DNA of 64,000 bases from Parcubacteria group bacterium Gr01-1014_30 (GCA_007376185.1 VMFS01000007.1:1390-65389), one strand, 5' to 3'; shown: positions 17,060 to 60,587, counted from the first letter of the stretch. Translations and numbers: made by a program. Notes: generated by a model from the letters alone, not told the origin.

Positions 17060-17479
17060 ATGCGGGTATTTCTTGATACCAGCTGTATCATTGCCGCCGT
17101 ACTCTCGCAAACTGGCGGTTCATTTCGTATCGTAAGCGAAGCCGAAGTTCGAGGCATTACCATTATCGTTTCAAGATACGTTATTCGTGAGGCAGAAAAG
17201 AACATTCTCTTAAAATATCCGGAGTGCGCAGAATCGTTATTGAATATTGCGTCGTCATTTACATTTGTAAGAGATCCCTCATTGCGTGATGTAAAACGTC
17301 TCAGTGAAGTTGTAGATAAAGACGATGCGCCTGTGCTCGGCGCCGCTCTTTTGTCGCGCGCGGACGCGCTTTTGACGCTTGATCACAGGGATTTCATTCA
17401 GAATATAAAAGTCCAAAAGTCATTCCCGTTACTTAAAATAATGACGCCGGGAGAATTTATCAAAGAATATTTTGTATGA
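17060..17479 (+). CDS. PIN-domain toxin
   Basis: MRVFLDTSCIIAAV N-terminal acidic motif, DAPVLGAAL and LLTLDHRDF. The stop overlaps the start of the Cys-rich paralog (ATGA). Confidence 0.7.
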   Translation: MRVFLDTSCIIAAVLSQTGGSFRIVSEAEVRGITIIVSRYVIREAEKNILLKYPECAESLLNIASSFTFVRDPSLRDVKRLSEVVDKDDAPVLGAALLSRADALLTLDHRDFIQNIKVQKSFPLLKIMTPGEFIKEYFV

Positions 17480-19260
17480 ACTCAGAGGCCAAAACCTGCC
17501 AAAACTGCAAAAACGAGTTCGTCATTGAACCCGAGGACTTTAATTTTTATGAGAAAATCAAAGTCCCGCCGCCCACGTGGTGCTGGAAATGCCGTGCTAT
17601 GCGGCGTATGGCATTTCGTAATATGCGCCACATGTACGTTAGGAACTGCGATGCCACCGGAAAGAAAATATACACTCTAATGCCTCCTGGCAGCCCAATG
17701 CCGGTTTACAGCGACGATTACTGGAGAAGCGACAAGTGGGACCCAATGGACTACGGCCGCGAGTACGATTTCTCACGCCCTTTTTTTGAGCAAATTCGTG
17801 AGCTTTACAATACAGTTCCGTGGGGAACTATGTGGTCGATGGAAAAGGTTAACAGTGATTTTAGCTTTACAGCTTATTCCAAAAACTGCTATTTATGTTT
17901 TGATTCAGGCTATATAGAAGACAGCGCCTACAGCGTGACTTTGCTCTACAGCAAAAATTGTTTTGACATCATAAACGTGAAGGATTGCGAGTTTTGTTAC
18001 TACTGCATAAATACCAGCCAATCTTACAAAACGTTTTTTTCCAGAAACTGCGCTTCATGCGTTGAGGTGTGGTTTAGCCAGGACTGCGTGGGGTGCAACA
18101 ACTGTTTCGGGTGCAGTGGCCTTAGAAACAAAAGCTACTGTATTTTTAACAAACAGTACGATAGAGAAACTTACAAGGCCAAGCTTACGGAAATGAAGCT
18201 TAATACTTGGTCTGGCATTCAGTCTGCCAGAAAGCTGGCTCAGGATTTTTGGAAAAAATCTCCCGTAAAGTACTTCCACGGTGTAAAAGCGCTGAGAAGC
18301 TCCGGTGACTACCTTTATAATTGCACAGAACTTATCAATTGTTTTTTCGCCGGTAATGCGCAAAACATGCGCCATTGCCAGAGTGTTATTTTTCCTCCCA
18401 ACAAAGACAGCATGGATATTACTTCTTGCGAGGGAACCGATCTTGCCTACGAAATTTTGGCTGGCGGCCATGGGGTGCACAAAACGCTTGGCTGTGCGGA
18501 ATGCGCCAATGTAAGCGATAGTGCTTATGCCATAAACTGCAGATTTGTCAGCACCGTATTCGGATGCGTGGCCGTAAAGAGCAAAAGCTACTGCATATTA
18601 AATAAGCAGTATAGCAAGGAAGAATACTTTGAGTTGCTGCCGAAAATTAGAAACCACATGGATGAAATGCCCTATGTTGACGTTAAAGGTCGTGAGTACA
18701 GATATGGAGATTTCTTCCCGTTTGATATGAGTCCTTTCGGGTACAGCCAAACGCAAGCTTTTGAGTATTTTCAGCTCAATGAGGAAGAGGCTAAAAAACA
18801 GGGACTGCGCTGGAGAGAGAAAGAAAAAAGAGATTATACAATAACGAAAAGAGCAAATGAGTTGCCAGATGACATTAACAGCGTTGATGATAAGGTTATG
18901 GAAGGGGTTATTGAATGCGCGCACTCGGCGGACAGTGCTCATATTGCCGGTTGCGACATAGATTGCGCAACAGCTTTTCGTATAACTAAGCAGGAACTGG
19001 ACTTTTATCGTAAGTTTGAGCTTCCTTTGCCAAGATTGTGTTTTAACTGCAGGCATGTTGATAGGGTACAGTGGCGCAACATCCCAGCACTATATCACCG
19101 TCGTTGTATGTGTTTGTCTGGACAAGGGAGCGGCTATAAAAACGTTGCAACCCATTTCCATGGACAAGACCCTTGCCCTAACGAGTTTCAAACGAGTTAT
19201 GCACCCGGCCGCCCCGAAATTGTGTACTGCGAAAAGTGTTACCAAGCCGAAGTAGTTTAA
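17476..19260 (+). CDS. cysteine-rich multi-zinc-ribbon protein, paralog 1 (function unknown)
   Basis: 594 aa with 37 Cys by my count. N-terminus CQNCKNEFVIEPEDFNFYEKIKVPPPTWCWKCR; C-terminus HFHGQDPCPNEFQTSYAPGRPEIVYCEKCYQAEVV. Confidence 0.8.
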   Translation: MNSEAKTCQNCKNEFVIEPEDFNFYEKIKVPPPTWCWKCRAMRRMAFRNMRHMYVRNCDATGKKIYTLMPPGSPMPVYSDDYWRSDKWDPMDYGREYDFSRPFFEQIRELYNTVPWGTMWSMEKVNSDFSFTAYSKNCYLCFDSGYIEDSAYSVTLLYSKNCFDIINVKDCEFCYYCINTSQSYKTFFSRNCASCVEVWFSQDCVGCNNCFGCSGLRNKSYCIFNKQYDRETYKAKLTEMKLNTWSGIQSARKLAQDFWKKSPVKYFHGVKALRSSGDYLYNCTELINCFFAGNAQNMRHCQSVIFPPNKDSMDITSCEGTDLAYEILAGGHGVHKTLGCAECANVSDSAYAINCRFVSTVFGCVAVKSKSYCILNKQYSKEEYFELLPKIRNHMDEMPYVDVKGREYRYGDFFPFDMSPFGYSQTQAFEYFQLNEEEAKKQGLRWREKEKRDYTITKRANELPDDINSVDDKVMEGVIECAHSADSAHIAGCDIDCATAFRITKQELDFYRKFELPLPRLCFNCRHVDRVQWRNIPALYHRRCMCLSGQGSGYKNVATHFHGQDPCPNEFQTSYAPGRPEIVYCEKCYQAEVV

Positions 19261-19285
19261 GATACACGGGTTTCACCCGTGTATC
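19261..19285 (+). terminator. stem-loop after paralog 1
   Basis: gatacacggg-tttca-cccgtgtatc: 10-bp perfect stem directly after the stop codon. The downstream T tract is weak. Confidence 0.45.
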
Positions 19286-19332
19286 TTATGTATCACTATT
19301 TCGCCATGGTATTTTAGCGATATAATTTTAAC

Positions 19333-23744: not shown

Positions 23745-25517
23745 ATGACCTCACAAGAACTGCGGCAGGAATTTCTAGATTTCTTTGCCAAGAAGGGGCA
23801 CAAGATTGTGCCTTCAAGTTCGCTGATACCCGATGACTCGTCGGTTCTTTTCACGACGGCCGGAATGCAGCAGTTCAAGCCGTATTATTTGGGAACAAAG
23901 TCCCCTTGGGGGCCAAACGTCGCCTCAATTCAGAAGTGTTTTCGCACTTCCGACATTGACGAGGTTGGCGATAGCACGCACAATACTTTTTTGGAAATGT
24001 TGGGTAACTTTTCGTTCGGCGGATATTTCAAAAAAGAGGCGGTTGAGTATGCTTATGAGTTTATCGCTAAAAAATTGGACCTGGAGATTGAGTACGTAAC
24101 TATTTTTGAGGGCGACTCTCAAGTTCCGCGCGACATAGAGTCGCGCGAAATTTGGAAAAAGATTGTCCCCAATATTCAAGTGCGCGAACAGGGCAGAGAA
24201 GATAACTTTTGGGGACCCACGGGTTTGACAGGCCCTTGCGGCCCGACAACGGAAATTTACGTAGCCAACTCAAAAGGCGAGCCCGTTGAGATTTGGAACA
24301 TTGTTTTTAACGAGTTTTACTGCAACGCCGACAAGTCGCTCGCCAAACTCGAAACTCCCGGCGTAGATACCGGCATGGGGCTTGAACGTTTGGCAATGGT
24401 CGCACAAAAAAAGCCGACTATTTTTGAGACGGATTTGTTCCAACCGCTAATAACCAGATTGCCAGCCAGCTTGCCCGAGAGGGATAAAAGAATATTTGCC
24501 GACCACGGCCGAGCGGTTTCTTTTCTTGTGGCCGACGGAGTCAAGCCTTCCAACAAAGAGCAGGGTTATGTTTTGCGTCGACTTTTGAGACGCATAATCG
24601 CTTACGGAACTTACTCGAAGAGAGCTTCGTTCTCTTCTCGACCTTCGCTTTTGCTACACAAAAGCTCGGTAGTAGAGGAAGATATTTTTGTTGAGGTTAT
24701 TAAAAACTATAATCTGTTTTATCCAGAGCTGAATCTTTCCACTATTATGGAGGTTTTTGCGCAAGAAAAAGAAAAGTTCGGCCGCACAATGAAATCCGGC
24801 CTCAAAGAGCTCAACAAAATGGAGTTCGTTGACGCCAAGACGGCTTTCAAGCTTTACGAAAGTTTCGGGCTGCCATACGAAACCATCAAAGATGTCGGTG
24901 GCAAGAAGGCCGAAGGCCTCAGCCGAGAAGGTTTTGATGAGGAGTTCAAAAAGCACCAGGAACTTTCCCGTTCATCTTCTTCGGGAATGTTCAAAGGCGG
25001 CTTAGTGGACCATGAGCCCCAAACAATCAAGCACCACACCGCGCATCATTTGCTCTTGGCGGCGCTGCGTCAGGTTTTGGGTTCTTACGTGGTTCAGCGG
25101 GGCTCAAACGTGAGCTCTGAAAGATTGCGCCTTGACTTTTCGCATCCGGAAAAATTAACCAAAGCGCGACTCGCTGAAATTGAGGAAATAGTCAATCAGA
25201 AAATTTCCGAGAGTTTAGAGGTAAGGAGGGAAGAAATGCCTAAAGCAAAAGCGGAAAAGTTGGGCGCTCTGGCTGAATTTGGGGCAAAGTACGGCGAAAT
25301 AGTGAACGTATATACTATATACAACAAAGACGGAACGGCCTTCTCGCGTGAGTTTTGCGGGGGCCCTCATGTTAAGAACACTTCTGAGCTTGGACGTTTC
25401 AAGATAATCAAAGAAGAAGCGGCGGGCTCTGGCGTCAGACGCATCAAAGCATCGATAGAGCAGTCTAAAGGGCACAGGATTCCGAACTATAATCAGCTTG
25501 AGAAGCGAAAAAAATGA
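23745..25517 (+). CDS. alaS: alanine--tRNA ligase, short form
   Basis: FLDFFAKKGHKIVPSSSLIP...LFTTAGMQQFKPYYLG, WGPTGLTGPCGPTTEIY, HHTAHHLL and CGGPHV. At 590 aa it lacks the usual C-terminal extension. Confidence 0.9.
   Translation: MTSQELRQEFLDFFAKKGHKIVPSSSLIPDDSSVLFTTAGMQQFKPYYLGTKSPWGPNVASIQKCFRTSDIDEVGDSTHNTFLEMLGNFSFGGYFKKEAVEYAYEFIAKKLDLEIEYVTIFEGDSQVPRDIESREIWKKIVPNIQVREQGREDNFWGPTGLTGPCGPTTEIYVANSKGEPVEIWNIVFNEFYCNADKSLAKLETPGVDTGMGLERLAMVAQKKPTIFETDLFQPLITRLPASLPERDKRIFADHGRAVSFLVADGVKPSNKEQGYVLRRLLRRIIAYGTYSKRASFSSRPSLLLHKSSVVEEDIFVEVIKNYNLFYPELNLSTIMEVFAQEKEKFGRTMKSGLKELNKMEFVDAKTAFKLYESFGLPYETIKDVGGKKAEGLSREGFDEEFKKHQELSRSSSSGMFKGGLVDHEPQTIKHHTAHHLLLAALRQVLGSYVVQRGSNVSSERLRLDFSHPEKLTKARLAEIEEIVNQKISESLEVRREEMPKAKAEKLGALAEFGAKYGEIVNVYTIYNKDGTAFSREFCGGPHVKNTSELGRFKIIKEEAAGSGVRRIKASIEQSKGHRIPNYNQLEKRKK
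24616..24665. repeat. in-frame twin-hairpin insertion inside alaS
   Basis: gaagagagc-ttc-gttctcttc and gcttttg-ctaca-caaaagc. Encodes SKRASFSSRPSLLLHKS in a region where E. coli AlaS has no such segment. Confidence 0.5.
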
Positions 25518-30121: not shown

Positions 30122-30126
30122 ACTAC

Positions 30127-30441
30127 ATGAACGTTAAGTTCTTTGACAGTAAAACCGAACGATTTATTAAAATGCTGGACGCGCAAACCGTTGCGCGGAC
30201 ATTGCGTACAATCGATCTTCTGGAAATGTTTGGCCATAAACTCGGATTTCCCCACAGCAAAAAAGTTGAGCCGCGGATTTTTGAACTTCGGGTGCGCGGA
30301 AAACAAGAAGTGCGGATTTTCTACACTTTTCACGACGGCGAGGCGATTCTTTTACACGGTTTTATAAAGAAATCACAACGGCTTCCGAGGAAAGAAATTG
30401 AAGCCGCGCGGCGTACACTGAAAGTACTTGACAGCTCATAA
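30127..30441 (+). CDS. HigB/Gp49-like (RelE-fold) toxin
   Basis: Track ORF 30097-30441; likely start is ATG 30127 (MNVKFFDSKTERF). IFELRVRGKQEVRIFYTFHDGEAILLHGFIKKSQRLPRKEI. Confidence 0.65.
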   Translation: MNVKFFDSKTERFIKMLDAQTVARTLRTIDLLEMFGHKLGFPHSKKVEPRIFELRVRGKQEVRIFYTFHDGEAILLHGFIKKSQRLPRKEIEAARRTLKVLDSS

Positions 30442-30465
30442 CGTATACGTTATACTAACCGTGCT

Positions 30466-30744
30466 ATGAAAAGTTATACACAAGCGAAAAACCGCCTTCT
30501 CAAGAATCGCCGCGTCAAAAAGGCATATGAGGAACTGGGGCCCGAATTTGAAGTTATCGCGCTTCTTATCAAGATGCGGCTTCGCAAAAATATCAGCCAG
30601 AGAGCGCTTGCCGAACGCATGGGCACCAAGCAGTCGGCAATTTCTCGGCTTGAATCTGGGCAGTATAACCCGAGTCTGTCTTTTCTCTATAAAATTGCCC
30701 GCGCATTAAATGCGCAAGTGAAAATTTCCTTAGGCTCGAAGTAA
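30466..30744 (+). CDS. XRE-family HTH antitoxin (HigA-like)
   Basis: ISQRALAERMGTKQSAISRLESGQYNPSLSFLYKIARALN helix-turn-helix. Confidence 0.75.
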   Translation: MKSYTQAKNRLLKNRRVKKAYEELGPEFEVIALLIKMRLRKNISQRALAERMGTKQSAISRLESGQYNPSLSFLYKIARALNAQVKISLGSK

Positions 30745-30750
30745 AAAGTG

Positions 30751-30840
30751 AAATGCCCCAACGAGTTTGAGACCTCCTACGCGCCAGAGCGCCCTGAAAT
30801 CGTCTACTGCGAAAAGTGCTACCAAGCAGAAGTTGTATAG
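30751..30840 (+). pseudogene. 3'-terminal fragment of a Cys-rich family gene
   Basis: Translates to KCPNEFETSYAPERPEIVYCEKCYQAEVV*, with no upstream gene body. Lies directly after the higA-like stop. Confidence 0.75.
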
Positions 30841-30867
30841 TTTTGTTTATTTTGATATACTTTAAGT

Positions 30868-31056
30868 ATGACCACCCAGACCCTTATTAGAAAAATAAAT
30901 CAGCGTCAGAACTTGATTCTGGAAGAAATGCGTCAGCTTCAAACCAAAATAAAAATTCTTGGTTCTTTGAGACGTTTTGAGGACTTGGCTAAAAAAGGAA
31001 GGAAATTTGCCAAAGCAAAAGGCATAAAGCCGAGCGACGTACTCAAGAATGACTAG
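30868..31056 (+). CDS. putative antitoxin (MTTQ-type)
   Basis: MTTQTLIRKINQRQNL is homologous to MTTQMLIRKINREVST (58335). Preceded by tttgatatact. Confidence 0.4.
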   Translation: MTTQTLIRKINQRQNLILEEMRQLQTKIKILGSLRRFEDLAKKGRKFAKAKGIKPSDVLKND

Positions 31057-31273: not shown

Positions 31274-31299
31274 ATCGTGAGACACAAAATTGCCAAAAA
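31270..31299 (+). pseudogene. 5'-terminal fragment of a Cys-rich family gene
   Basis: ATGA overlap with the PIN stop, as at 17476. Encodes MNRETQNCQK (compare MNPETRTCQNCK and MRETRNCQNCK); homology is then lost. Confidence 0.5.
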
Positions 31300-31346
31300 G
31301 AGGCAAGGGGATTGACCTTTATGAAACATTTTGCTAAAGTAAAAAA

Positions 31347-31571: not shown

Positions 31572-31581
31572 CAAAATATGA

Positions 31582-48736: not shown

Positions 48737-50086
48737 ATGTTTCACCAAGAAATCGTTGACATACTCTTGCAGGTTGCGACCAATTGGTGGTGGCTCATTT
48801 TGCCGCTTATTCTTTGGTTTCCCGCCGCCTTTTTTTACCTTTGGTGGCTGAGCTGGGAAGTTTGGTACCCCAAGTATAAATGGGTTGTTTTGGAAATAAA
48901 GCCGCCCAAAGAGATTCTAAAACCCTTCAGGGCTATGGAGGACATTTACTCGGGGCTTTGGGGCGTAATAGACACTCCAAACTGGCGGGAAAAGTGGTGC
49001 GAAGGGGAGGTTGAATTGGGCGGAGGCCTTTGGTTTTCTTTTGAGGTTGTTTCCCTTGGCGGAAACATCCACTTTTATCTAAGAATAAAAGAGGAGTTTC
49101 GCGATACAGCCGAGTCCGTGATTTACGCTCAGTATCCGGACGCGGAAATCACCGAAGTTGAGGACTACGCCAAAAACGTTCCCCAGGACCTGCCTAATAA
49201 AGACTGGAATTTGTACGCAGAAGATTATCAGTTCAGCAAGGAAGATCCTTACCCCATCAAGACCTACAGCAAGTTTTTTGAAGAAAGGCCTGAAGTCGCC
49301 AAAGAAGAAAAAAGGATTGATCCAATGGACGCCCTCTTGGAAGGCTTGAGCAAGGTAACTCCAGACGAACAGCTTTGGCTTCAAATCGGATGCATTCCGC
49401 TGCTTGACAGACTTATGCCGAAGCGTTGGATAACAAGGGGCAAAGAAATAAGGGATGAACTTGCCAAAAGACCAAAGGCCAAGAAGCCAAAACCAATGAT
49501 TGAAGAGGCCGTTGACGTTTTGCTTGTCGGTCCCTCAACAGAAAAGGAAGTTAAGGATCCCTTTGCGTCCGCGGTAGAGTTTCGTTTGACTCCCGGGGAA
49601 AAAGATACTTTGGCGGCAATTGAAAATAAAATATCAAAGCATGGTTACAGCTGCTGGATAAGAATGGTGCACATTTTTAAAGCCGACAAACCGCACTTGA
49701 GAGGCAGACAATACACAATGAGAAGCTACTTCCAGCAATTTATGACCGAGAGTTTGAATTCAATTAACTATCTTGGCGTTACAAGAACCAGAATACATTA
49801 CGTATTTCCTAAAAGGCGCCTTTTTATGAGAAAGCGAAGGCAGTTTAGAAATTACATTAAAAGGGTGCCCCCTTACTACCCTAAAATGACAGGAGAACCT
49901 TCTTCTTTTCTCAAGCTGGAACTGCTCGGCGAGTCAAAAGGCCCCGGTCTAGGAAAGGGCACAATGGTGCTGAACATTGAGGAACTTGCCACCATTTTTC
50001 ATTTTCCGACGAAAATCATTGTTCCCGGCGTTCCTTACGTTGAAGCTAAAAAAGCGGGTCCTCCTCAAGACTTGCCAACAGAATGA
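48737..50086 (+). CDS. membrane protein partner of the P-loop ATPase (unknown family)
   Basis: 449 aa. W-rich N-terminal TM hairpin (NWWWLILPLILWFPAAFFYLWWLSW), then a soluble domain. Its stop overlaps the ATPase start (ATGA). Confidence 0.5.
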   Translation: MFHQEIVDILLQVATNWWWLILPLILWFPAAFFYLWWLSWEVWYPKYKWVVLEIKPPKEILKPFRAMEDIYSGLWGVIDTPNWREKWCEGEVELGGGLWFSFEVVSLGGNIHFYLRIKEEFRDTAESVIYAQYPDAEITEVEDYAKNVPQDLPNKDWNLYAEDYQFSKEDPYPIKTYSKFFEERPEVAKEEKRIDPMDALLEGLSKVTPDEQLWLQIGCIPLLDRLMPKRWITRGKEIRDELAKRPKAKKPKPMIEEAVDVLLVGPSTEKEVKDPFASAVEFRLTPGEKDTLAAIENKISKHGYSCWIRMVHIFKADKPHLRGRQYTMRSYFQQFMTESLNSINYLGVTRTRIHYVFPKRRLFMRKRRQFRNYIKRVPPYYPKMTGEPSSFLKLELLGESKGPGLGKGTMVLNIEELATIFHFPTKIIVPGVPYVEAKKAGPPQDLPTE

Positions 50087-51846
50087 GCGAAATAACTTTT
50101 CTCGCCAAAACTAGTTTTAGGAAAAAGAACCAAAAGTTCGGCATCAAAAAATCCGACAGGCGCCAGCATGCTTACATTATCGGTAAAACCGGTGTGGGCA
50201 AAACCGCTCTTTTGAAAAACATGGCTTTGCAAGACATTCAAAGGGGCGAGGGAATTGCCATTATTGATCCTCACGGCGAGTTTGTTGAAGAAGTTCTGGA
50301 TTCAATACCTTCCAACAGGATAAACGACGTGGTCTACTTCAATCCGGCCGACCAGGAATACCCTGTCAGTTTTAACATTCTTGAGGTTCAAGAACCCGAG
50401 TATAAGCATTTGGTGGCTTCTGGTTTAATCGGCATTTTCACCAAGATTTGGGCAAATGTTTGGTCTGCTCGTATGGAGTATATTCTGTCAAACTGCATTT
50501 TGGCGCTCTTGGACACGCCGGGCACGACTCTGTTGGGAATACCGCGCATTCTGGTGGACCGCGACTACCGCCAGAGAATAATCAATAACTTGAAAGACCC
50601 GGTTGTAAAATCGTTTTGGGTTAACGAATACGAAGAATGGACCCCATCTTACCGCAACGAGGCTATAGCTCCGCTGCAAAATAAAGTCGGCCAATTTCTC
50701 AACGTTTCCTTAATAAGGAACATTGTGGGCCAGGCAAAAAGCACTATTGACATCCCAAAAATAATGAACGAGGGGAAAATCCTGCTGGTCAATGTTTCCA
50801 AAGGAAGGGTGGGGGAGGATAACTCTGCCATCTTGGGAGCTATGATCATCACCAAAGTACAGCTGGCCACCATGGAAAGAGTCAGGATTCCCGAAGAAAA
50901 GCGAAGAGATTTTTATCTTTACGTTGACGAGTTCCAGAATTTTGCCACCGACGCTTTTGTTAATATTCTGTCTGAAGCCAGAAAATATCGCTTAAACTTA
51001 ATCGTCGCCCACCAGTACATCGGCCAGTTAATCACCAGCAGTACCACGCACACCACGACAACGGTTAGGGATGCTGTTTTCGGCAACGTGGGAACGATGA
51101 TATGTTTTCGCGTGGGAGCGGCTGATGCCGAGTTTTTGGAACAGGAGTTTTTTCCCGAGTTCACGCAAAAAGACTTGGTCAATCTGCCAAACTACAATGT
51201 TTATCTAAAACTTATGATAGAGGGCGTTACTTCGAGGCCTTTTTCCGCTCAAACTCTTCCTCCTCCCAGCGTTGATAGCACAAAAAGCAGCCGCGAAAAA
51301 ATTATCAGGGTTTCCAGAGAACAGTATTCCAAAAAAAGAGCAGAGGTTGAGTCAAAAATCGCCACGTGGTCTGGAATCTTGGAGAAAACGCCCGAAGAAT
51401 CGCTTTTTTCAACGGCCGCCCAACCCGGAGTTTTATACGACGCCAAATGTTCTTCTTGCGGCAAATGGACGAAAACTGTTTTTAAACCGCAGGAAGGAAA
51501 ACCTGTTTATTGCAAGTCCTGCCTTAGGAAAATGGCGGCCGCAAAAGCCGGCGCTAAGGCTTCTGGTGCCACTCTGCCCGAAACAACTTTGGCGCAACCT
51601 TCGGCTTTGGGCGCTTTAGGAATTGAGTTTGGCACTTCACAGGCAGCTCCAAGGCCCACTTTTCAGCGTCAAGAAAAGAAAGTTGAGGAAAAAGAAATTT
51701 CCTATATTCCGCCCATGCCTACACCAAAGAAAAAAGAGAGAAAAGTTGTTAACCTGGAAGCGCTTCAAAAAACCTTGACCGAGGCCTTGGGAAAGTTCAA
51801 GAAGGAGCCGGAGCAAGAAGCTGACGCGGAAGAAAAAAGTAAATGA
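50083..51846 (+). CDS. TraD/VirD4- or HerA/FtsK-like P-loop ATPase with C-terminal zinc ribbon
   Basis: Walker A GKTGVGKT, Walker B LYVDEFQNF, RKYRLNLIVAHQYIGQL. C-terminal CSSCGKWTKTVFKPQEGKPVYCKSC and a low-complexity A/K/E tail. Confidence 0.7.
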   Translation: MSEITFLAKTSFRKKNQKFGIKKSDRRQHAYIIGKTGVGKTALLKNMALQDIQRGEGIAIIDPHGEFVEEVLDSIPSNRINDVVYFNPADQEYPVSFNILEVQEPEYKHLVASGLIGIFTKIWANVWSARMEYILSNCILALLDTPGTTLLGIPRILVDRDYRQRIINNLKDPVVKSFWVNEYEEWTPSYRNEAIAPLQNKVGQFLNVSLIRNIVGQAKSTIDIPKIMNEGKILLVNVSKGRVGEDNSAILGAMIITKVQLATMERVRIPEEKRRDFYLYVDEFQNFATDAFVNILSEARKYRLNLIVAHQYIGQLITSSTTHTTTTVRDAVFGNVGTMICFRVGAADAEFLEQEFFPEFTQKDLVNLPNYNVYLKLMIEGVTSRPFSAQTLPPPSVDSTKSSREKIIRVSREQYSKKRAEVESKIATWSGILEKTPEESLFSTAAQPGVLYDAKCSSCGKWTKTVFKPQEGKPVYCKSCLRKMAAAKAGAKASGATLPETTLAQPSALGALGIEFGTSQAAPRPTFQRQEKKVEEKEISYIPPMPTPKKKERKVVNLEALQKTLTEALGKFKKEPEQEADAEEKSK

Positions 51847-53546
51847 GCTCTGAAATCAAACTCTGCCAGAATTGTAAGAACGAGTTCACGATTGCACTGG
51901 AGGACTTTAACTTTTACGAGAAAATCAAGGTCCCGCCGCCTACCTTTTGTCCGAAATGCCGTTTTCAAAGACGGCTAGCGTTTTTCAACATTTTTAACCT
52001 TTATCAGCGAAAATGCGATTTTTGTAAAAACGAGATGATTTCAATATTTCCTGCCAACTCTCCTTATAAAATTTTTTGTCAAAAATGTTGGTGGTCTGAT
52101 AAATGGAGTTCTTTAGATTACGGTCGCGAGTACGATTTCTCGCAGCCGTTTTTTAAACAATTTAATGAGCTCTTACACGAGGTACCACTTATTGGTTTGG
52201 CGAATGACGCCACGAACGTAAATTCGCCATACAATAATATGTCCGGCCATCTCAAAAATTGTTATCTACTTTTCCATGCCGATTTTTCAGAGAATTCGGC
52301 TTACGGATTTCATATTAATCGCATGAATGATTGCCTGGACTCGTCAATTATGACTTCCTGTGAGTTATGTTACGACTCAATGCACGCTTATAAGTGTAGC
52401 CGTTGCGTAGGTTCAAGAAGTCAAGTTGTTAACTCTGTAGATTGTGCGTTTTTAAGAGACTCTTTTAATTGCCAGAGTTGTTTTGCTTCTGCAAATCTCC
52501 GGAATAAAAAATATTATATTTTCAACAAACCTCACAAAAAAGAAGATTATCTTGAAGAGATTAAAAAGTGGAACTTGGGTTCTTATAAAACTTATAAGGA
52601 AATTCAAAGATTGGCGGAAGAACATTGGAAAAAGTTTCCACCTAAACCTAATCAAGATGATTTTTCCGTAAACTCGATTGGAAGTTATGTGAACCAGGCT
52701 AAAAACTGTAAGCAGTGTTTTGAAGTTGTTGGGGCAGAAGATTCAAAATACCTCTTGATGTTATACGTCCCTCCGATTAAAGACTGTTATGATGTTTCGA
52801 GTTGGGGTAATAATATTTCTTTGTTTTATGAATGTTGCAATTGCGGAGAAAATTCATCCAGTCTGCGCTTTAGTTACGGTTCTGGGATAGATCTTTACGA
52901 CGCTGATTACTGTTACCAATCGCTCGGAGGCTCCAATCAATTTGGTTGCGTTTCAACGAGGAAGGGTGAGTATATGATTTTCAACAAACGCTATTCTAAA
53001 GAGGATTATGAGAAGTTAAGAGAAAAAATTATCGCTCATATGCAAGAAATGCCTTATACAGACAAGAAAGGCAGGGTGTATAAATACGGCGAGTTTTTTC
53101 CGCCGGAATTATCTCCTTTTGCTTACAACGAAACGCTGGCGCAAAACTTTTTTACCCTGAGCGAAGCCGAAGCTGAGTCGAAGGGTTTCCGCTGGCGAGA
53201 GCTGGAGAAAAAAGAATATCAGATTACTATGAAGGCCGCGGACTTGCCAGACCATATAAAGGATATCGGAGACGATATTTTGAAAGAGGTTATTTCCTGC
53301 CAAAAATGCGGCAGGGGTTACAAAATTATTCAAATGGAGCTTGATTTCTTGCGCAAAATGAATCTGCCTTTGTCGCGGGAGTGTCCTTTTTGCCGCATCA
53401 ACGATAAACTGGAGCTGTGGGTCAAAAACCTGCGGGTTTTTGACCGAGTTTGTTCAAAATGCGGCGCCCGTTTCCAAACGCACTATCCAAAAGAAGAGGT
53501 CTCGTATATTCTCTGCAAAAAGTGCTGGCTGGCAGAGTTTGTTTAG
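51843..53546 (+). CDS. cysteine-rich multi-zinc-ribbon protein, paralog 3 (divergent C-terminus)
   Basis: 567 aa. CQNCKNEFTIALEDFNFYEKIKVPPPTFCPKCR. Ends ...YILCKKCWLAEFV. The start overlaps the ATPase stop (ATGA). Confidence 0.8.
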   Translation: MSSEIKLCQNCKNEFTIALEDFNFYEKIKVPPPTFCPKCRFQRRLAFFNIFNLYQRKCDFCKNEMISIFPANSPYKIFCQKCWWSDKWSSLDYGREYDFSQPFFKQFNELLHEVPLIGLANDATNVNSPYNNMSGHLKNCYLLFHADFSENSAYGFHINRMNDCLDSSIMTSCELCYDSMHAYKCSRCVGSRSQVVNSVDCAFLRDSFNCQSCFASANLRNKKYYIFNKPHKKEDYLEEIKKWNLGSYKTYKEIQRLAEEHWKKFPPKPNQDDFSVNSIGSYVNQAKNCKQCFEVVGAEDSKYLLMLYVPPIKDCYDVSSWGNNISLFYECCNCGENSSSLRFSYGSGIDLYDADYCYQSLGGSNQFGCVSTRKGEYMIFNKRYSKEDYEKLREKIIAHMQEMPYTDKKGRVYKYGEFFPPELSPFAYNETLAQNFFTLSEAEAESKGFRWRELEKKEYQITMKAADLPDHIKDIGDDILKEVISCQKCGRGYKIIQMELDFLRKMNLPLSRECPFCRINDKLELWVKNLRVFDRVCSKCGARFQTHYPKEEVSYILCKKCWLAEFV

Positions 53547-53776: not shown

Positions 53777-54082
53777 ATGATTTTTCTTTACGTATTTTGT
53801 AAAGACGTCAACGAGGCCAAAACAATCGGAACTTTGTTGGTAACACAGAGGATTGCCGGCAAAGTGGATATAATACCAGTTCAATCAATTTTTCGAGAAA
53901 GAGAAGGGATTCAAGAGCGAGAAGGAGCGGCAATGATTGTAAAGACCATTGATAAGAAAATTCAAGACGTAGAAGATGTTGTTCGGCAGCATCAGCTTAA
54001 CAGGACTTCCTGCATTGCGTCTTTTGCGCTTTATCGCTTGAACCGCGAATTCAAAGAGTGGCTGGTGGCTTCCACCGCCTAA
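53777..54082 (+). CDS. cutA: CutA1-like divalent-cation-tolerance protein (putative)
   Basis: 101 aa. AKTIGTLLVTQRIAGKVDIIPVQSIF...MIVKT...REFKEWL matches the CutA pattern loosely. Confidence 0.5.
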   Translation: MIFLYVFCKDVNEAKTIGTLLVTQRIAGKVDIIPVQSIFREREGIQEREGAAMIVKTIDKKIQDVEDVVRQHQLNRTSCIASFALYRLNREFKEWLVASTA

Positions 54083-54390: not shown

Positions 54391-54591
54391 ATGGCGACAA
54401 TCACTTTACCTAAAACTGAATATGAAATCCTTGAGAGAAAAGCCGAACTTTATTCTCAACTTTTAGAAAAAGAAGAGAAAAGTTTTCCTGTTGAGATTTA
54501 CTCCCTACAAAGGATAAGGGAGTTTTTAAAGGGAGACAATTTGAGCATTAAGGATAAGAATAAAGTTAAAAGGATTCTCAAAAACAGGTGA
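54391..54591 (+). CDS. putative antitoxin
   Basis: 66-aa ORF whose stop overlaps the PIN start (4-nt overlap). Confidence 0.4.
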   Translation: MATITLPKTEYEILERKAELYSQLLEKEEKSFPVEIYSLQRIREFLKGDNLSIKDKNKVKRILKNR

Positions 54592-55022
54592 GATTACATC
54601 GCCTCTTTTTAGACGCTAATGTTTTCTTCGCCGCGGTAAAGTCGCAAAAAGGAGGCTCGCGGCTGATTTTAGATTTGGCCCAGCATGGAAAAATGAAAAT
54701 TGTAACAGTCAGGCACGCCCTGCGCGAGGCGGAAAGGAACATTGAGGATAAACTTGGCGAAAAGTATCTTTTGGAATATTATCGGATTATTAAAGAAAGC
54801 CGCGTTTCCGTTCAAGCCGTTGACAAGCTGAGTGAGGGAGCAATTTTAGAGTTAAAGAAAGTTATCGTGGAAAAAGATATTCCTATTATTGTCGGTGCGT
54901 TCCAGTCAGGATGTGAGTTTTTGATAACTCTGGACAGAAAACATCTGTTGGACAACGAAAGTTTAAGAAATTTTCCGTTCAAAGTGTTGACGCCAGGAGA
55001 ATTTATCCAAACTTATCTTTGA
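54588..55022 (+). CDS. PIN-domain toxin
   Basis: LFLDANVFFAAV, DIPIIVGAF, LITLDRKHL. Shares GGS+ and LTPGEFI motifs with the PIN at 17060. Its stop lies 1 nt before the paralog 4 ATG. Confidence 0.7.
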   Translation: MRLHRLFLDANVFFAAVKSQKGGSRLILDLAQHGKMKIVTVRHALREAERNIEDKLGEKYLLEYYRIIKESRVSVQAVDKLSEGAILELKKVIVEKDIPIIVGAFQSGCEFLITLDRKHLLDNESLRNFPFKVLTPGEFIQTYL

Positions 55023-55023: not shown

Positions 55024-56856
55024 ATGAGAGAAACAAGAAACTGCCAAAATTGCAAACAAAACTTCGTTATAGAAGCCGAGGACTTTACTTTCTACGAAAA
55101 AATCAAGGTGCCGCCGCCGACGTGGTGCCCGGAGTGCCGGTTTAAGCGCAGAATGAGCTGGCGGAATGCTTGGCATTTGTTCAAGAAAACCGACGCTCTG
55201 ACAGGAGAAAAGATATTTTCTTTGTTTCCCGAAGAAAGTCCTATAAAAATTTACGAGCGCGATTATTGGTGGTCTGATAAATGGAACGCTGAGCAATACG
55301 GTCGTGATTTTGATTTTAGGAGAACTTTTTTTGAACAGTTTAGGGATTTGATGCATGAAGTTCCTTTTCCTGCGCACTCCGTGATAGATCTTTCAAATTG
55401 CCAGTATTGCACAAACGCGAATAACATGAAAAACTGTTATCTTGTCCGCGCCGCCGCTAACACGGAGGATTCAGCTTATCTCATATGGGATAACGGTTCA
55501 AAACGATGCATGGACAGTCATATGACCGAGCAATGCGAGATGAGTTACGGTAATGTAAATGCGACGCGGTGCTTCAAGACGCTTTTTTGCTCTGACTGCG
55601 AGGACTGCGTAGAGACAATACTTTGTAAAGATTGCGTAGGTTGCTCAAATTGTTTTGGCTGCGTTGGTTTGCGAAACAAATCCTATCATTTTTTCAACGA
55701 GCGGTTGTCAAAAGAGGATTACGTCAGAAAACTTACAGAGCTAAATCTTGGCTCTGCGCAATCATTCAGCAAAGCAGAAATAAGGGCACGCGATTTTTGG
55801 CTTAAGTTCCCTAGAAAGTACCTTCACGGCAGGCAAAATGTTGATGTTAGCGGTGACTACATATACGAATCAAAAAACGCCAAGCAGTGTTATCGCGTTT
55901 TTCGGTGCGAGGACGTCAAGTTCTGCCAGAACATTCTGGATGGGCCAGTCAAGGACTGTTATGACTACTCCAACTGGGGCGACAACAACGAGCTGCTGTA
56001 CGAATGCCTTATATGCGGAAAAGGAAGTTCAAGAGTTAAATTTTGCGCTCAATGCTATTTGAACGATCGAGATTTGGAATACTGCATTTTCTGCCATGAT
56101 TCGTCAGATCTTTTCGGCTGCGTTGGTTTGCGAAACAAGCAGTATTGTATTTTAAACAAACAATATAGCAAAAATGATTATAGAGAGTTGGTATCAAAAA
56201 TCAAAAAACACATGACCGATTTGCCTTACCGCGACCGCGCTGGAAATGTGTTCGCTTATGGGGAATTTTTCCCACCCGAATTATCGCCGTTTCCTTATCA
56301 AGTGACCGAGGCCTACGAGCCTTTTCCGATGACTAATGAAGATGCAGCACAAAGAGGATTCAGTGCTTACGATGTCAAAAGAGAGGAGCATAATTTCACA
56401 CTGCCGGCCGCAGACATACCAGACCACATTCGCGAAGCTCAAGATACAATCACCGATGGAGTTATCGGCTGCCAGCATGATGGGAAATGCGCTCAAGAGT
56501 GTACAAAAGCATTTCGCATCATCAAAGAAGAGTTGGAGTTCTGCAGACGGCTTAGCATACCTCTGCCCCGCCTCTGCCCCAATTGTCGGCATTATGAGCG
56601 TTTGGCTTTCAGGAATTCTCCGAGGTTCTTCAACCGCGTGTGCGGCTGCGCCGGTAAAGAATCCCAAAACGGCGTATATCAGAACACCGCTTCGCACTTC
56701 CACGGACAAGAACCCTGCCCCAACGAGTTTCAAACGAGTTATGCTCCACAGCGTCCGGAAATAGTATATTGTGAACGATGCTACCAGGCCGAGCCGAGGT
56801 TGCGTAAAAAATGTAGGATGAAATATGGCTCCGCAAGTAAGAATTCGCAGATTTAA
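55024..56856 (+). CDS. cysteine-rich multi-zinc-ribbon protein, paralog 4 (C-terminal end replaced)
   Basis: 610 aa. CQNCKQNFVIEAEDFTFYEKIKVPPPTWCPECR. The C-terminus ...RPEIVYCERCYQAE then runs on as PRLRKKCRMKYGSASKNSQI instead of ending with VV-stop. Confidence 0.8.
   Translation: MRETRNCQNCKQNFVIEAEDFTFYEKIKVPPPTWCPECRFKRRMSWRNAWHLFKKTDALTGEKIFSLFPEESPIKIYERDYWWSDKWNAEQYGRDFDFRRTFFEQFRDLMHEVPFPAHSVIDLSNCQYCTNANNMKNCYLVRAAANTEDSAYLIWDNGSKRCMDSHMTEQCEMSYGNVNATRCFKTLFCSDCEDCVETILCKDCVGCSNCFGCVGLRNKSYHFFNERLSKEDYVRKLTELNLGSAQSFSKAEIRARDFWLKFPRKYLHGRQNVDVSGDYIYESKNAKQCYRVFRCEDVKFCQNILDGPVKDCYDYSNWGDNNELLYECLICGKGSSRVKFCAQCYLNDRDLEYCIFCHDSSDLFGCVGLRNKQYCILNKQYSKNDYRELVSKIKKHMTDLPYRDRAGNVFAYGEFFPPELSPFPYQVTEAYEPFPMTNEDAAQRGFSAYDVKREEHNFTLPAADIPDHIREAQDTITDGVIGCQHDGKCAQECTKAFRIIKEELEFCRRLSIPLPRLCPNCRHYERLAFRNSPRFFNRVCGCAGKESQNGVYQNTASHFHGQEPCPNEFQTSYAPQRPEIVYCERCYQAEPRLRKKCRMKYGSASKNSQI
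56694..56792 (+). repeat. 99-nt block identical to 29965-30063
   Basis: Same sequence as at 29965-30063. Identity ends at the CYQA codons, exactly where both loci show rearrangement junctions. Confidence 0.85.
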
Positions 56857-58300
56857 GCTGGCGGCTCCGCCGCCAGAACTGCCGATTTGGGGTAAGCTTC
56901 ATCCCGAAGAGTGCTCTTTTATCGGTCGCACCAACTACGAGGCGGCCCTTGAAGAGAAAAAGTTTATTTTCGGCATAAAAAGAGTGGACAGGCGCCGCCA
57001 CGTTTACATCGTAGGCAAGAGCGGAGTTGGCAAGTCAAAACTGCTTGAACTTTTTTTGCGGCAAGACATCGCTTACGGCCACGGCATTTGTTTTATAGAC
57101 CCTCACGGCGACGTCATTGAGGAGATTTTGCATTTTATTCCCGAAGAACGCATCAACGACGTGGTTTTGATTGACCCTTCAGACGCCAGCTACCCCATTT
57201 CCTTCAACCCTCTGGCAAACATTGATCCTGGTTTCAAGCACCAATTAACGCAAGGCTTGATTGAGGTTATGGAAAAGCAGTTTGGCGCAAACTGGACACC
57301 CCGTTTGGAGCACGTTTTCCGTTTCACTTGTTTGGCTCTTTTGGATTACCCGCACGGCACAATGCGGGGAATGATTTCAATGCTTACAGACCGCAACTAC
57401 CGCCAGCTGGTGGTTGACTACATTGAAGACGACATGGTCAAGCGTTTCTGGGCTATTGAGTTTGCCGACTGGTCGGAAAAATACGACACAGAAGCCATAA
57501 TACCCTTGGTCAACAAACTGGCGCAGTTTTTATCCGACCCGATGCTCCGCAGTATTTTCGGCCAAAAAGAAAACAAGGTTGACTTGGAGGAGTTGATGAA
57601 CGGCGGAAAAATTATTTTAATCAACCTTTCCAAGGGCAAACTGGGCGAGGAAAACTCAAGTTTTTTCGGCTCAATGTTTATAACCAAAATAAAGCAGGCG
57701 GGTATGGCAAGGGCGGCTCTGCCGGAAGCGGAAAGAACTGATTTTTACCTGTATGTTGACGAGTTTCACAACTTGGTTACTGAAACCTTTGAAAACCTTT
57801 TGTCAGAGGCCAGAAAATACGGGCTTTGCTTAACCATTGCCCACCAGTATATGGGCCAGCTTATTCCAAGGGTTCAGCAGGCGGTTCTTGGAAACACGGG
57901 CACGACCGTTGTTTTCAGAGTCGGCGGAGAAGACGCGGTCAAGCTGGAGCCGGAGTTAGCTCCCGTGTTCGGCATCAAAGATATGGTTAACCTCGGGGTG
58001 CAGAATTTTTACATAAAAGAAACTATTGACGGCGAGGCATACGACCCTTTTTCCGCAGAAACCCTAAAAGTTCTGCCTCCGGCCCACACCTCTTTTAAGG
58101 AACGAATAGTCAAGCAGTCGCGCGAAAAGTACACCATTTCCGTGGAGGCGGCCAAAAAACTGATGGAAGAAGAAGAGTCAAAAATTATGAGAAGCGCGCA
58201 AGAAAAAGCAATAATTGAAGGCGGAAAGAAGGGCAAGGCAGCGGCAGGGGGCTCGGAGGCCGAAGCCAAGGAAGAAAAGGGAGCTGAACCGCTGATATAG
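56825..58300 (+). CDS. TraD/HerA-like P-loop ATPase, second copy (no zinc ribbon, no membrane partner)
   Basis: Walker A GKSGVGKS, Walker B LYVDEFHNL, RKYGLCLTIAHQYMGQL. The first ~20 codons (FKLAAPPPELPIW) resemble the C-terminus of the 449-aa membrane protein (AKKAGPPQDLPTE). Overlaps paralog 4 by 32 nt. Confidence 0.7.
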   Translation: MAPQVRIRRFKLAAPPPELPIWGKLHPEECSFIGRTNYEAALEEKKFIFGIKRVDRRRHVYIVGKSGVGKSKLLELFLRQDIAYGHGICFIDPHGDVIEEILHFIPEERINDVVLIDPSDASYPISFNPLANIDPGFKHQLTQGLIEVMEKQFGANWTPRLEHVFRFTCLALLDYPHGTMRGMISMLTDRNYRQLVVDYIEDDMVKRFWAIEFADWSEKYDTEAIIPLVNKLAQFLSDPMLRSIFGQKENKVDLEELMNGGKIILINLSKGKLGEENSSFFGSMFITKIKQAGMARAALPEAERTDFYLYVDEFHNLVTETFENLLSEARKYGLCLTIAHQYMGQLIPRVQQAVLGNTGTTVVFRVGGEDAVKLEPELAPVFGIKDMVNLGVQNFYIKETIDGEAYDPFSAETLKVLPPAHTSFKERIVKQSREKYTISVEAAKKLMEEEESKIMRSAQEKAIIEGGKKGKAAAGGSEAEAKEEKGAEPLI

Positions 58301-58334: not shown

Positions 58335-58559
58335 ATGACTACTCAAATGCTTATCAGAAAAATAAATAGGGAAGTATCAACGCTGCGACGGGATATGGCG
58401 ATGATAAAAATGATGCTCACCTCCACCCCACGCGATCCGGAAGGAGAATACCGGCCAGCTTTCGTAAATAAAATGCTAAAACGCATGGCGTTCAAAAGGC
58501 CTGTTTATCGTTTTACGAGCAAAAAGGAATTCCTTCGTCATGTCAGGTCAGCCAAATGA
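58335..58559 (+). CDS. putative antitoxin (MTTQ-type)
   Basis: MTTQMLIRKINREVSTLRRDM. Preceded by ttttgctatact. Overlaps the RelE-like gene by 20 nt. Confidence 0.4.
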   Translation: MTTQMLIRKINREVSTLRRDMAMIKMMLTSTPRDPEGEYRPAFVNKMLKRMAFKRPVYRFTSKKEFLRHVRSAK

Positions 58560-58833
58560 GATAACTTACGACGACGATTTCTGGAAAGACGCCAAATACT
58601 TGCCTAAAAAGGCGCAAGATAAACTCGGTTTTCTTATAGAGCTTATGAGAAAGGACGCTTTTGACCCTCGTCTTCACACCAAGCGTTTAGGGGTTCCGCT
58701 CCAGGACGCTTTTTCGTTTAGAATAACTCGCGATTACCGGGTTGGTTTTATATTCCTCGCGCCGCGCGTTATTAAACTGCTCGCAGTTGACAGCAGAGAT
58801 AAAATCTACAAGCGTTTGTCAAGAAAAATATGA
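58540..58833 (+). CDS. RelE/ParE-family toxin
   Basis: FDPRLHTKRLGVPLQDAFSFRITRDYRVGFIF...IKLLAVDSRDKIYK. The stop overlaps the paralog 5 start (ATGA). Confidence 0.6.
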   Translation: MSGQPNEITYDDDFWKDAKYLPKKAQDKLGFLIELMRKDAFDPRLHTKRLGVPLQDAFSFRITRDYRVGFIFLAPRVIKLLAVDSRDKIYKRLSRKI

Positions 58834-60587
58834 ATCCTGAAACAAGAACTTGTCAGAACTGTAAAAACGAGTTCACGATTGAGCCGGAGGATTTTAATTT
58901 TTACGAAAAAATCAAGGTGCCTGCTCCGACTTTTTGTCCCACTTGCCGTATGCAGAGAAGATTCGCTTGGCGGAACGAAAGAAATCTCTATCGTGGAAAA
59001 GATAGAGCAACGGGAAAAGAAGTTTTTACCGGGATTCCGCCTCATTCGCCACTCATGATTTATGAAATTGAGTACTGGCGTTCCGATGCCTGGGATTCAT
59101 TACAATACGGCAGGTCCTACGATTTCTCTCGTCATTTTTTTGAACAATTAAAGGAACTCATCTATGCGGTGCCTTGGCCGTCCCGGAGCGTGTATAATAT
59201 AAAGAACTCCGACTACTCCGACCAAGCCGGGCACCTGAAAAATTGCTATCTTTGTTTCAACCTTGATTACACCGAGGATTCGGTTTACAGCGTGAAAGCC
59301 CCGAACTGCAAGCACGTTATTGACGTTTTTGAAGTGCATCACAGCGAGCTATGTTATGACAGCGTAAACATAACGGAGTGTTCCCGCACTTTTTACTCGG
59401 CTGATTGCGATTCATGCCTTGATGTTTGGTTTTCAAAAAACCTTGTGGGTTGCAACAATTGCGTGGGCTGCGTGAATCTTCGGAACAAGTCCTATCACAT
59501 CTTTAATGCGCCTTACTCAAAGGAAGACTATAAGAAAAAACTTGAAGCGATGAACTTTCGTTCAAGGCAAGGAGTGGAAGAAATTAAAAAACAGGTGTAC
59601 GACTTTTGGTTGCAGTACCCGGTAAAGTTTATGCGCGGCTTGCGGAATTTGAATTCAACAGGCGAGGCATTGCGTAACACAAAAAACGCCAGGGATTGCT
59701 ACATGGTTCAGGATGCCGAAAACGTCAAATACGTACAAATGACATATATTGGCACTACCGATTCGTGGGATTACTCGGTGTGGGGCAATAAATCGGCTAG
59801 GATGTATGAGACGCTTGTATGCGGTGATGAGTGCGACAGTTTGCGTTTTTCTTTCGACTGCTGGCCGGCCTGCCGTAATCTTGAATATTGCGTGGCGTGC
59901 CGTTCTTCAGCTGATTGTTTTGGTTGCGTTGGGCTAAAGAAAAAGCAGTATTGCATTTTCAATAAGCAATACTCAAAGGAGGAATACGAAGCCCTCCGTG
60001 AAAAAATCATCTCCCACATGAACGAAATGCCCTATGTGGATAGTAAAGGCATAGTTTATAAATACGGCGAGTTTTTGCCTACGGAATTTTCACCATTTGC
60101 ATTCAACGAAACAATGCTTGCTGACTATTTCCCGCTATCCAAAGACGAGGCGATTGCCAAAGGATATAAATGGAAGGATCCCGAGCTGCGTGAGTATCAA
60201 ATTACAATGAGCGCAGAAAAAATACCCGACTCGATTGACGAAACAACAGATGAAATTCTAAAAGAGATTTTGCAGTGCGCCTCCTGCAAACGTGCGTTCC
60301 GCATCGTGCGCCAGGAACTTGACTTTTACCGTCGGATCGGCATACCGCTCCCGAACCTTTGTCATAACTGCCGTTATCTAGCGCGATTTGGACTTATAAA
60401 CAGACCGAAGTTTTATACTCGTTCTTGCCACTGCGGAGGCCAAAAGTCGCAAAGCGGCATATATCAAAATACCGCTAAGCACTTCCACGGCCAAGACCCC
60501 TGTCCCAACGAGTTTGAAACGAGCTATGCCCCTGAGCGTCCGGAAATAGTTTACTGTGAGAAATGTTATCAGTCAGAAGTGGTATGA
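58830..60587 (+). CDS. cysteine-rich multi-zinc-ribbon protein, paralog 5
   Basis: 585 aa. CQNCKNEFTIEPEDFNFYEKIKVPAPTFCPTCR. C-terminus HFHGQDPCPNEFETSYAPERPEIVYCEKCYQSEVV. Confidence 0.8.
   Translation: MNPETRTCQNCKNEFTIEPEDFNFYEKIKVPAPTFCPTCRMQRRFAWRNERNLYRGKDRATGKEVFTGIPPHSPLMIYEIEYWRSDAWDSLQYGRSYDFSRHFFEQLKELIYAVPWPSRSVYNIKNSDYSDQAGHLKNCYLCFNLDYTEDSVYSVKAPNCKHVIDVFEVHHSELCYDSVNITECSRTFYSADCDSCLDVWFSKNLVGCNNCVGCVNLRNKSYHIFNAPYSKEDYKKKLEAMNFRSRQGVEEIKKQVYDFWLQYPVKFMRGLRNLNSTGEALRNTKNARDCYMVQDAENVKYVQMTYIGTTDSWDYSVWGNKSARMYETLVCGDECDSLRFSFDCWPACRNLEYCVACRSSADCFGCVGLKKKQYCIFNKQYSKEEYEALREKIISHMNEMPYVDSKGIVYKYGEFLPTEFSPFAFNETMLADYFPLSKDEAIAKGYKWKDPELREYQITMSAEKIPDSIDETTDEILKEILQCASCKRAFRIVRQELDFYRRIGIPLPNLCHNCRYLARFGLINRPKFYTRSCHCGGQKSQSGIYQNTAKHFHGQDPCPNEFETSYAPERPEIVYCEKCYQSEVV

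Follow-up and report, generated by a model that had tools for sequence, protein, structure and literature searches.

A cysteine-rich protein family encoded beside VirD4/HerA-like coupling ATPases in Patescibacteria

Much of microbial diversity belongs to the Patescibacteria, whose members grow on other microbes as epibionts or parasites. Their genomes encode thousands of orphan VirD4-like coupling ATPases that lack known substrates: a census recovered 5,713 VirD4-like type IV coupling proteins (T4CPs) in 2,918 Patescibacteria genomes, mostly encoded far from virB4 and with their function unresolved (PMC12102498). Here we describe a family of cysteine-rich proteins, hereafter the Cys family, of which five members are encoded in a stretch of 64,000 nucleotides from Parcubacteria group bacterium Gr01-1014_30 (GCA_007376185.1, VMFS01000007.1:1390-65389; hereafter the window). 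The only two VirD4/HerA-like ATPases of this genome both flank Cys genes. It is the ATPase, and not the Cys protein, that compares with the orphan T4CPs of the census, to whose class its family belongs: it matches VirD4 and TraD models and is near-universal, often standing away from virB4 (PMC12102498). A difference is that it carries no N-terminal membrane domain, and the Cys family is a candidate for its substrate. Gene adjacency, translational coupling and co-expansion point to the Cys protein, probably scaffolded by zinc, as a likely cargo or partner of this ATPase. The family is present in public data but is unnamed and undescribed in the literature searched, and both its architecture and its link to orphan T4CPs appear to be new.

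Cysteine-rich genes and their coupling ATPases

The source genome, a Patescibacteria genome assembled from a groundwater metagenome, measures 769 kb at 97% completeness and is thus as streamlined as a preliminary description of this DNA had supposed. The full-length Cys genes and the two ATPase genes are arranged as follows, in window coordinates unless a contig is named and with lengths in amino acids (aa).

17476-19260, + strand: copy 1 (P0001), cysteine-rich, predicted multi-zinc protein of 594 aa, with ATGA translational coupling to an upstream PIN toxin gene
28292-30121, + strand: copy 2 (P0002), 609 aa, its 3′ end carrying an in-frame duplicated tail and overlapping a HigB-like toxin gene
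50083-51846, + strand: VirD4/HerA-like soluble coupling-type ATPase (TrwB_AAD_bind, DUF87 and zf_Tbcl_2), ATGA-coupled to copy 3
51843-53546, + strand: copy 3 (P0003), 567 aa, with a divergent C-terminus and ATGA coupling to the upstream VirD4/HerA-like ATPase
55024-56856, + strand: copy 4 (P0004), 610 aa, starting 1 nt past a PIN toxin stop, its 3′ end overlapping the second VirD4/HerA-like ATPase
56825-58300, + strand: second VirD4/HerA-like ATPase, lying between copies 4 and 5 and sharing 47% identity with the one at 50083-51846
58830-60587, + strand: copy 5 (P0005), 585 aa, ATGA-coupled to an upstream RelE-family toxin gene
Contig C8, 35898-37715, − strand: sixth full-length copy, outside the window, found by whole-genome search

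The five + strand genes that had been proposed as paralogs were recovered as open reading frames with the very same boundaries, and they are clearly related to each other, with E values of 1e-118 to 1e-183 between copies and 45-49% identity to P0001 in the alignment of the five. They hold 33–42 cysteines each, and the 37 reported for P0001 were counted again. Since protein identity among the copies is only 42-49%, they are distinct genes and cannot be assembly duplicates of a single gene, and each is nearer to homologs from other genomes than to the rest. The remainder of the window consists of core housekeeping genes, including SecA, AlaRS, SecDF, the ribosomal proteins S11, S13, L13 and L17, RNA polymerase α and PGK. 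The AlaRS reading frame (23745-25517) codes for 590 aa only, the catalytic and N-terminal part, and its C-terminal editing region may have been split off or may be missing.

The ATPase combines a TrwB_AAD_bind domain, DUF87 (the HerA central domain) and a CxxC-x17-CxxC zinc finger, matches the VirD4-like CD1115 and TraD coupling-protein models, and is named in databases as a type IV secretion system DNA-binding domain-containing protein. Its proximity to Cys genes extends beyond the source genome: among the loci of the 80 best-located hits in other genomes, all from Patescibacteria, 32 (~40%) have such an ATPase within ~5 genes of the Cys-family gene, against ~2% expected, because the ATPase occurs at ~2 copies per ~800-gene genome. 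In 15 of these 32 loci the gap between the two genes is below 50 nt, and both gene orders are seen. The association is strong; we leave it unquantified because loci that form arrays are not wholly independent of one another. The genome also encodes a monoderm VirB4 (NCBIfam CD1110 family, over cutoff; contig C6:81605-83242) and hence a type IV secretion core. VirB4 was found in 388 of 401 sampled Patescibacteria genomes and the ATPase family in 398, at ~2 per genome, so that the presence of VirB4 does not discriminate. A complex prediction for ATPase residues 1-430 with P0003 scored 0.00 against a mark of 0.32, which counts neither for nor against an interaction.

Predicted architecture and family assignment

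The preliminary description had recognised no function in the Cys proteins, and profile searches of Pfam, NCBIfam, PADLOC and PHROGs likewise name no family for them. The best Pfam match was zf_Tbcl (E 0.0015-0.0025, below cutoff), with no other family; NCBIfam gave no match at cutoff and PADLOC none, and in PHROGs phrog_15341, whose function is not annotated, spans one Cys module (E 8e-8). A sequence search of the PDB returned no useful match, Foldseek against the PDB found none at E ≤ 1e-3 with either the full model or the central region, and an ESM Atlas search returned family members only. Pfam and structure searches detected no nuclease, SIR2 or other catalytic domain.

The sequence blocks described earlier are all present in the alignment of the five copies: the N-terminal CQNC...FYEKIKVPPPTxCPxCR block with W[WR]SDxW and YGRxxDF, two Cys modules ending GCxGLRNK.Y.IFNK.Y.K..Y that mark an internal duplication, a second ribbon xPLP..CxxCR, and the C-terminal tail HFHGQxPCPNEFQTSYAP.RPEIVYCExCYQ, which four of the five share and in which P0003 diverges. 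No signal peptide or transmembrane segment could be found, as had been stated, the maximal 19-residue Kyte-Doolittle score being 0.69-1.33; the proteins look cytoplasmic.

A full-length AlphaFold2 model built from a 60-sequence alignment was confident (pLDDT 87, pTM 0.88), and conservation was scored across 60 diverse homologs. In the model, an N-terminal zinc ribbon followed by helices (residues 1-120) leads into a first β-rich Cys module (121-235). Residues 236-300 form helices and a β-hairpin that is long and variable; a second Cys module, homologous to the first (301-380; C204/C213/C222 align with C355/C364/C373), and a helical segment (381-480) come next. The N-terminal CxxC…CxxC ribbon (C8/C11/C36/C39) is invariant in the 60 homologs and lies on predicted β-hairpins, as expected of a zinc ribbon, and the basic residues R40, R43 and R44 just behind it are conserved. 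The C-terminal ribbon (C493/C497/C522/C525) is homologous to the N-terminal one (E 3e-12), a duplication absent from the preliminary description. It is followed by a Cys/His site in which C544, C567, C585 and C588 are invariant and H560/H562 occur in 53 of the 60 homologs. C567, C585 and C588 lie in the highly conserved C-terminal tail, which also occurs as orphan copies, and look structural. Conservation peaks at both termini and is lowest in the helix/hairpin segment 236-300, while many cysteines of the central region are not invariant. Stand-alone homologs of the C-terminal ribbon, ~95-105 aa long, lie upstream of Cys genes in two loci of other genomes (L030:3-320 and L073:17-298).

Folded alone, the central region is predicted to form runs of 3-4-residue strands with a period of ~6. 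The structures that match it best are without exception β-helices or rolls, namely antigen 43 (VIA Z 8.2), TibA (Z 7.7) and the Tenebrio antifreeze protein (Z 7.2), scores that unrelated models reach as well, followed by YadA/UspA1 heads, left-handed β-helix (LβH) acyltransferases and pentapeptide repeats. Cysteines recur at a spacing of ~12 residues in module 1 (C171, S/C183, C195, C207; C192/C204; C210/C222), which is consistent with Cys ladders along a solenoid. Since the protein carries no export signals, we infer that the module cysteines are metal ligands rather than disulfides. Taken together, the Cys protein is predicted by AlphaFold to comprise two homologous zinc-ribbon units and two Cys-laddered β-solenoid modules, and it probably binds several zinc ions: at least four Zn sites are predicted, in the two ribbons, in the C-terminal Cys/His site and as clusters within the solenoids.

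Distribution, horizontal spread and neighbouring genes

The Cys family is large: a search of 90%-clusters returned >7,000 hits, and at 50% identity there are 3,663 clusters. Its members come from Saccharibacteria, Nomurabacteria, Paceibacterota, Liptonbacteria, Sungbacteria and others. All named hits, and the 80 best-located ones, are from Patescibacteria, to which the family is so far confined, other phyla not having been systematically searched. Within this group it is patchy, being present in 21 of the 401 sampled genomes (~5%) and in none of 40 close relatives. Multi-copy arrays occur in 61 of the 80 loci, with up to seven copies in 13 kb. Two proteins from other genomes, P0277 (1,727 aa) and P0278 (1,114 aa), are in-frame fusions of three and two tandem copies, joined where the stops between copies are missing; they could be genuine products of read-through or else artefacts of assembly or frameshifting. 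A tblastn search of 50,697 phage genomes gave no family match and IMG/VR yielded one weak partial viral contig only, so that a phage or prophage origin of the gene was rejected.

The preliminary description had called the genes an expanded family. Read as a lineage-specific local expansion, this did not survive a tree of 116 proteins, in which the six copies fall into six separate clades, each mixed with distantly related Patescibacteria (Saccharimonadota, Nomuraibacteriota, Minisyncoccota and others). Each copy is 52-72% identical to homologs from other genomes and only 42-49% identical to its own paralogs. Judged by these sequence relationships, the six copies would go back either to several horizontal acquisitions or to ancient paralogy followed by extensive loss, and separate horizontal gains are favoured because every copy clusters with homologs from other lineages of Patescibacteria.

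Around the copies, the window carries toxin–antitoxin (TA) genes and Cys-gene fragments. Neither the TA operons nor the VirD4/HerA-like ATPase had been noticed as recurrent neighbours in the preliminary description.

16820-17056, + strand: MTTQ-type (DUF2683-like family) antitoxin of the PIN toxin before copy 1
17060-17479, + strand: PIN-domain (VapC-like) toxin, ATGA-coupled to copy 1 (PIN_3 E 4e-11; TIGR00305)
30097-30441, + strand: Gp49/HigB-like toxin, whose gene overlaps the 3′ end of copy 2 (PF05973 E 4e-22)
30466-30744, + strand: HigA-like HTH_3 antitoxin (HTH_3 E 2.5e-16)
30745-30840, + strand: orphan 3′ tail remnant of 31 codons (KVKCPNEFETSYAPERPEIVYCEKCYQAEVV, then a stop), directly after the HigBA pair
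30868-31056, + strand: MTTQ-type antitoxin, homologous to those at 16820-17056 and 58335-58559 (repeat match, sequence)
31049-31273, + strand: short PIN-like toxin (VLDTN motif) before the 5′ stub, ATGA-coupled (sequence only)
31270-31359, + strand: 5′ stub of a copy (MNRETQNCQK...), its start codon overlapping the stop of the short PIN-domain toxin gene
54391-54591, + strand: putative antitoxin before the second PIN toxin, by position only, with no Pfam match
54588-55022, + strand: PIN-domain toxin immediately before copy 4 (PIN_3 E 5.5e-7)
58335-58559, + strand: DUF2683 (MTTQ-type) antitoxin of the RelE toxin before copy 5
58540-58833, + strand: RelE/ParE-superfamily toxin of 98 aa, ATGA-coupled to copy 5 (motif; BLAST to the ParE at the C8 copy)

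A toxin stop overlaps or abuts the Cys-gene start at P0001, P0004, P0005, the C8 copy, which has a ParD/ParE pair directly upstream, and the 5′ stub. Three homologous antitoxins with an MTTQ start are paired with different toxins (PIN, PIN and RelE), which looks like a modular TA cassette recombining with Cys genes. The two gene fragments noted earlier are real, a 3′-tail remnant at 30745-30840 with 78% DNA identity to the 3′ end of P0001 and a 5′ stub at 31270-31359. A third fragment, again the conserved 3′ tail, lies on contig C11 (140583-140657) in another, non-coding frame after a gene for a 121-aa membrane protein. The P0002 tail is itself duplicated in frame (30064-30121, ending in YQADPDRPEIVYCEKCYQAEVV). 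Contigs from the source sample back the rearranged stretch 30064-31632 as a single piece, and a single 99-bp contig from the same sample runs from the first P0002 tail to a plain QAEVV stop with no duplication, a hint that strains vary or that the reads stem from a different copy. From the orphan tails and the stub it seems that the conserved gene ends serve as sites of insertion or recombination for TA cassettes and new copies, which would explain why a decayed 5′ stub and orphan 3′ tails are left. The end of a 356-aa upstream gene (15722-16792), …AQEIKQAEVV, resembles the family end …CYQAEVV, probably by coincidence.

Other neighbours include a CutA1 divalent-cation tolerance gene (53777-54082) directly after P0003 and, farther away, a P1B-type ATPase for heavy metals (10616-12784) that bears an HMA motif at its N-terminus; CutA1 or ArsR/SmtB metalloregulator genes adjoin Cys genes in some loci of other genomes. 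At the start of the window (62-1303) lies a protein with HTH_3 and Peptidase_M78 (ImmA/IrrE-like) domains, a module frequent with mobile elements and in stress responses.

A candidate cargo, its rivals and known systems

Our leading model, held tentatively and at clearly less than even odds, is that the Cys proteins form a diversified repertoire of effectors exported by the coupling ATPase, perhaps into host cells. It leads because the ATPase matches T4CP models, VirB4 is encoded and the family has the features of an effector arsenal: patchy occurrence, multi-copy arrays, horizontal spread, a diverse middle between conserved termini and recombination scars give it the look of an effector or defence repertoire. 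Substrates of type IV secretion systems need no signal peptide, and two traits expected of such substrates are present here, namely the association with a coupling-protein gene (at the 32 of 80 loci and at both ATPases of the source genome) and the encoded VirB4. In this model, Cys genes would be gained singly and kept in arrays beside the ATPase and type II TA operons; the hexameric ATPase would take Cys proteins as cargo or partners, and these would most plausibly be substrates that the type IV secretion machinery of Patescibacteria exports, with host cells as a possible destination. The conserved termini would serve recognition and the variable β-solenoid/hairpin core target binding, the central modules being weakly similar (VIA Z 6-8) to the β-helical domains with which adhesins and antifreeze proteins bind, while the TA modules would tie expression to stress and penalise the loss of accessory copies. 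The more specific proposal, that zinc-scaffolded β-solenoid effectors are delivered into host bacteria by type IV machinery through the orphan coupling ATPase, we consider doubtful.

Several observations weigh against export. The ATPase has no N-terminal transmembrane domain and its Walker A motif lies at residue ~33, unlike canonical VirD4, and both ATPase and VirB4 are near-universal while the Cys family occurs in 21 of 401 genomes; since both are present in nearly all Patescibacteria, they must have roles without Cys proteins. A T4CP is moreover not essential in Saccharibacteria strain ML1 (PMC12102498). Sequence and structure searches of the Cys proteins revealed no secretion signal, effector domain or toxin activity, the conserved C-terminal tail matches no known translocation motif, and the structural likenesses of the central region are weak and general (Z ≤ 8.2, within the reach of unrelated models; Foldseek E ≥ 1e-3). 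The TA operons, which the model calls upon for retention, are also mostly a trait of the source genome: elsewhere, toxins (HicA, PemK, RelE/ParE, Fic) stand upstream in only ~10% of loci, and the TA link is therefore not a defining feature of the family.

The soluble nature of the ATPase and its match to the HerA central domain (DUF87) could instead point to an intracellular role, in which the Cys protein would join a HerA-like ATPase ring in a nucleic-acid complex, its ribbons (CxxCRxxRR) binding DNA or RNA and the ATPase translocating nucleic acid into it. Models for such a complex are archaeal HerA–NurA DNA-end processing and HerA-based defence systems against mobile genetic elements. This explanation seems rather unlikely, although the two genes are adjacent and translationally coupled, R40, R43 and R44 are conserved behind the N-terminal ribbon, and TA modules and an ImmA/IrrE-like protein lie nearby, as is often the case in defence islands; against it, neither Pfam nor structure searches turned up a catalytic domain such as a nuclease or SIR2, NurA has no likeness to the β-solenoid modules, and the near-universal ATPase contrasts with the rare Cys family. 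A related idea, that the Cys protein is the effector of an undescribed type of anti-phage or anti-plasmid defence system, would fit its patchy, horizontally moved, multi-copy occurrence beside TA modules and HerA ATPases, but with neither a PADLOC match nor a catalytic domain we regard it as improbable.

The TA genes themselves raise the possibility that the Cys protein is a third component of type II TA cassettes that is co-expressed with the toxin through the ATGA overlap and modulates it, or cargo stabilised by TA addiction and not specifically related to the toxin. Complete TA pairs (PIN, PIN, RelE and PIN in the window; ParDE on contig C8) abut or overlap Cys-gene starts, copy 2 has HigBA at its 3′ end, and HicA, PemK, Fic and RelE-like toxins recur upstream elsewhere. 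Nevertheless, the upstream toxins (PIN, RelE, ParE, HigB, HicA, PemK, Fic) show no consistent co-occurrence with one TA family; because they come from unrelated families, no single Cys protein could be the specific partner of all of them, and a dedicated third component of one TA family was rejected. Their antitoxins are complete and present, and outside the source genome toxins make up only that ~10% of upstream neighbours, so we judge this explanation unlikely. A storage or buffering protein for zinc, in a cell with minimal metal-handling genes, would account for the 37 cysteines, the several predicted zinc sites, the Cys ladder and the invariant CxxC pairs, and CutA1 after copy 3 and at other loci, ArsR/SmtB upstream at some, and the P-type ATPase in the window would suit it. 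Yet most loci have no metal genes, many central cysteines vary so that the region is not conserved as a metal cluster, and storage would need no horizontal spread, diversified copies or coupling-ATPase link; we give this explanation little credence.

Compared with described systems, the Cys family shares separate traits with several. As in HerA–NurA and HerA-associated defence systems, a gene for a soluble HerA-like ATPase stands beside, and is translationally coupled to, that of a large partner, but the Cys partner has zinc ribbons and β-solenoid modules in place of a nuclease or SIR2 domain, and a nuclease partner of the HerA–NurA type was rejected, no nuclease domain being found by Pfam or structure search. 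As in TAC (toxin–antitoxin–chaperone) and HigBA-chaperone systems, a third gene shares its transcription and translation with a type II TA pair, here through ATGA overlaps; the Cys gene, in contrast, follows the toxin, is large, has no chaperone or regulator domain, and accompanies unrelated toxins in a link frequent only in the source genome. The Cys-laddered antifreeze proteins of Tenebrio molitor (1ezg) and spruce budworm (1m8n) align with the central modules (Z 6.3-7.2), and the Tenebrio coils carry a cysteine every ~12 residues, as does the Cys-family module. In the Cys family, however, there is no signal peptide, ribbons flank the modules and the cysteines are probably reduced and metal-liganding; with only a weak fold likeness and no regular TxT array in the sequence, the family does not belong with the antifreeze proteins.

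Polymorphic toxin and effector repertoires, for example those of type VII secretion, are likewise accessory, diversified, multi-copy, linked to ATPases of the FtsK/HerA superfamily and marked by fragment scars (PMC3482391). The Cys family departs from them in having no N-terminal trafficking domain, variable C-terminal toxin domain or immunity genes: Pfam detected no toxin domain, and no small immunity-like gene consistently follows downstream. Its termini are conserved and its middle is variable, and its ATPase is soluble rather than a membrane EccC/EssC. We rate it as an accessory family that moves horizontally, is linked to an ATPase and has a domain plan without precedent. If the Cys proteins instead act as cytoplasmic zinc proteins with HerA, they would be a new class of partner for HerA/FtsK ATPases; if they are delivered into hosts, they would be the first defined substrate class for orphan T4CPs and a handle on how epibionts manipulate their hosts. 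For the thousands of orphan coupling ATPases in Patescibacteria (PMC12102498), the Cys family thus provides a concrete and testable candidate substrate.

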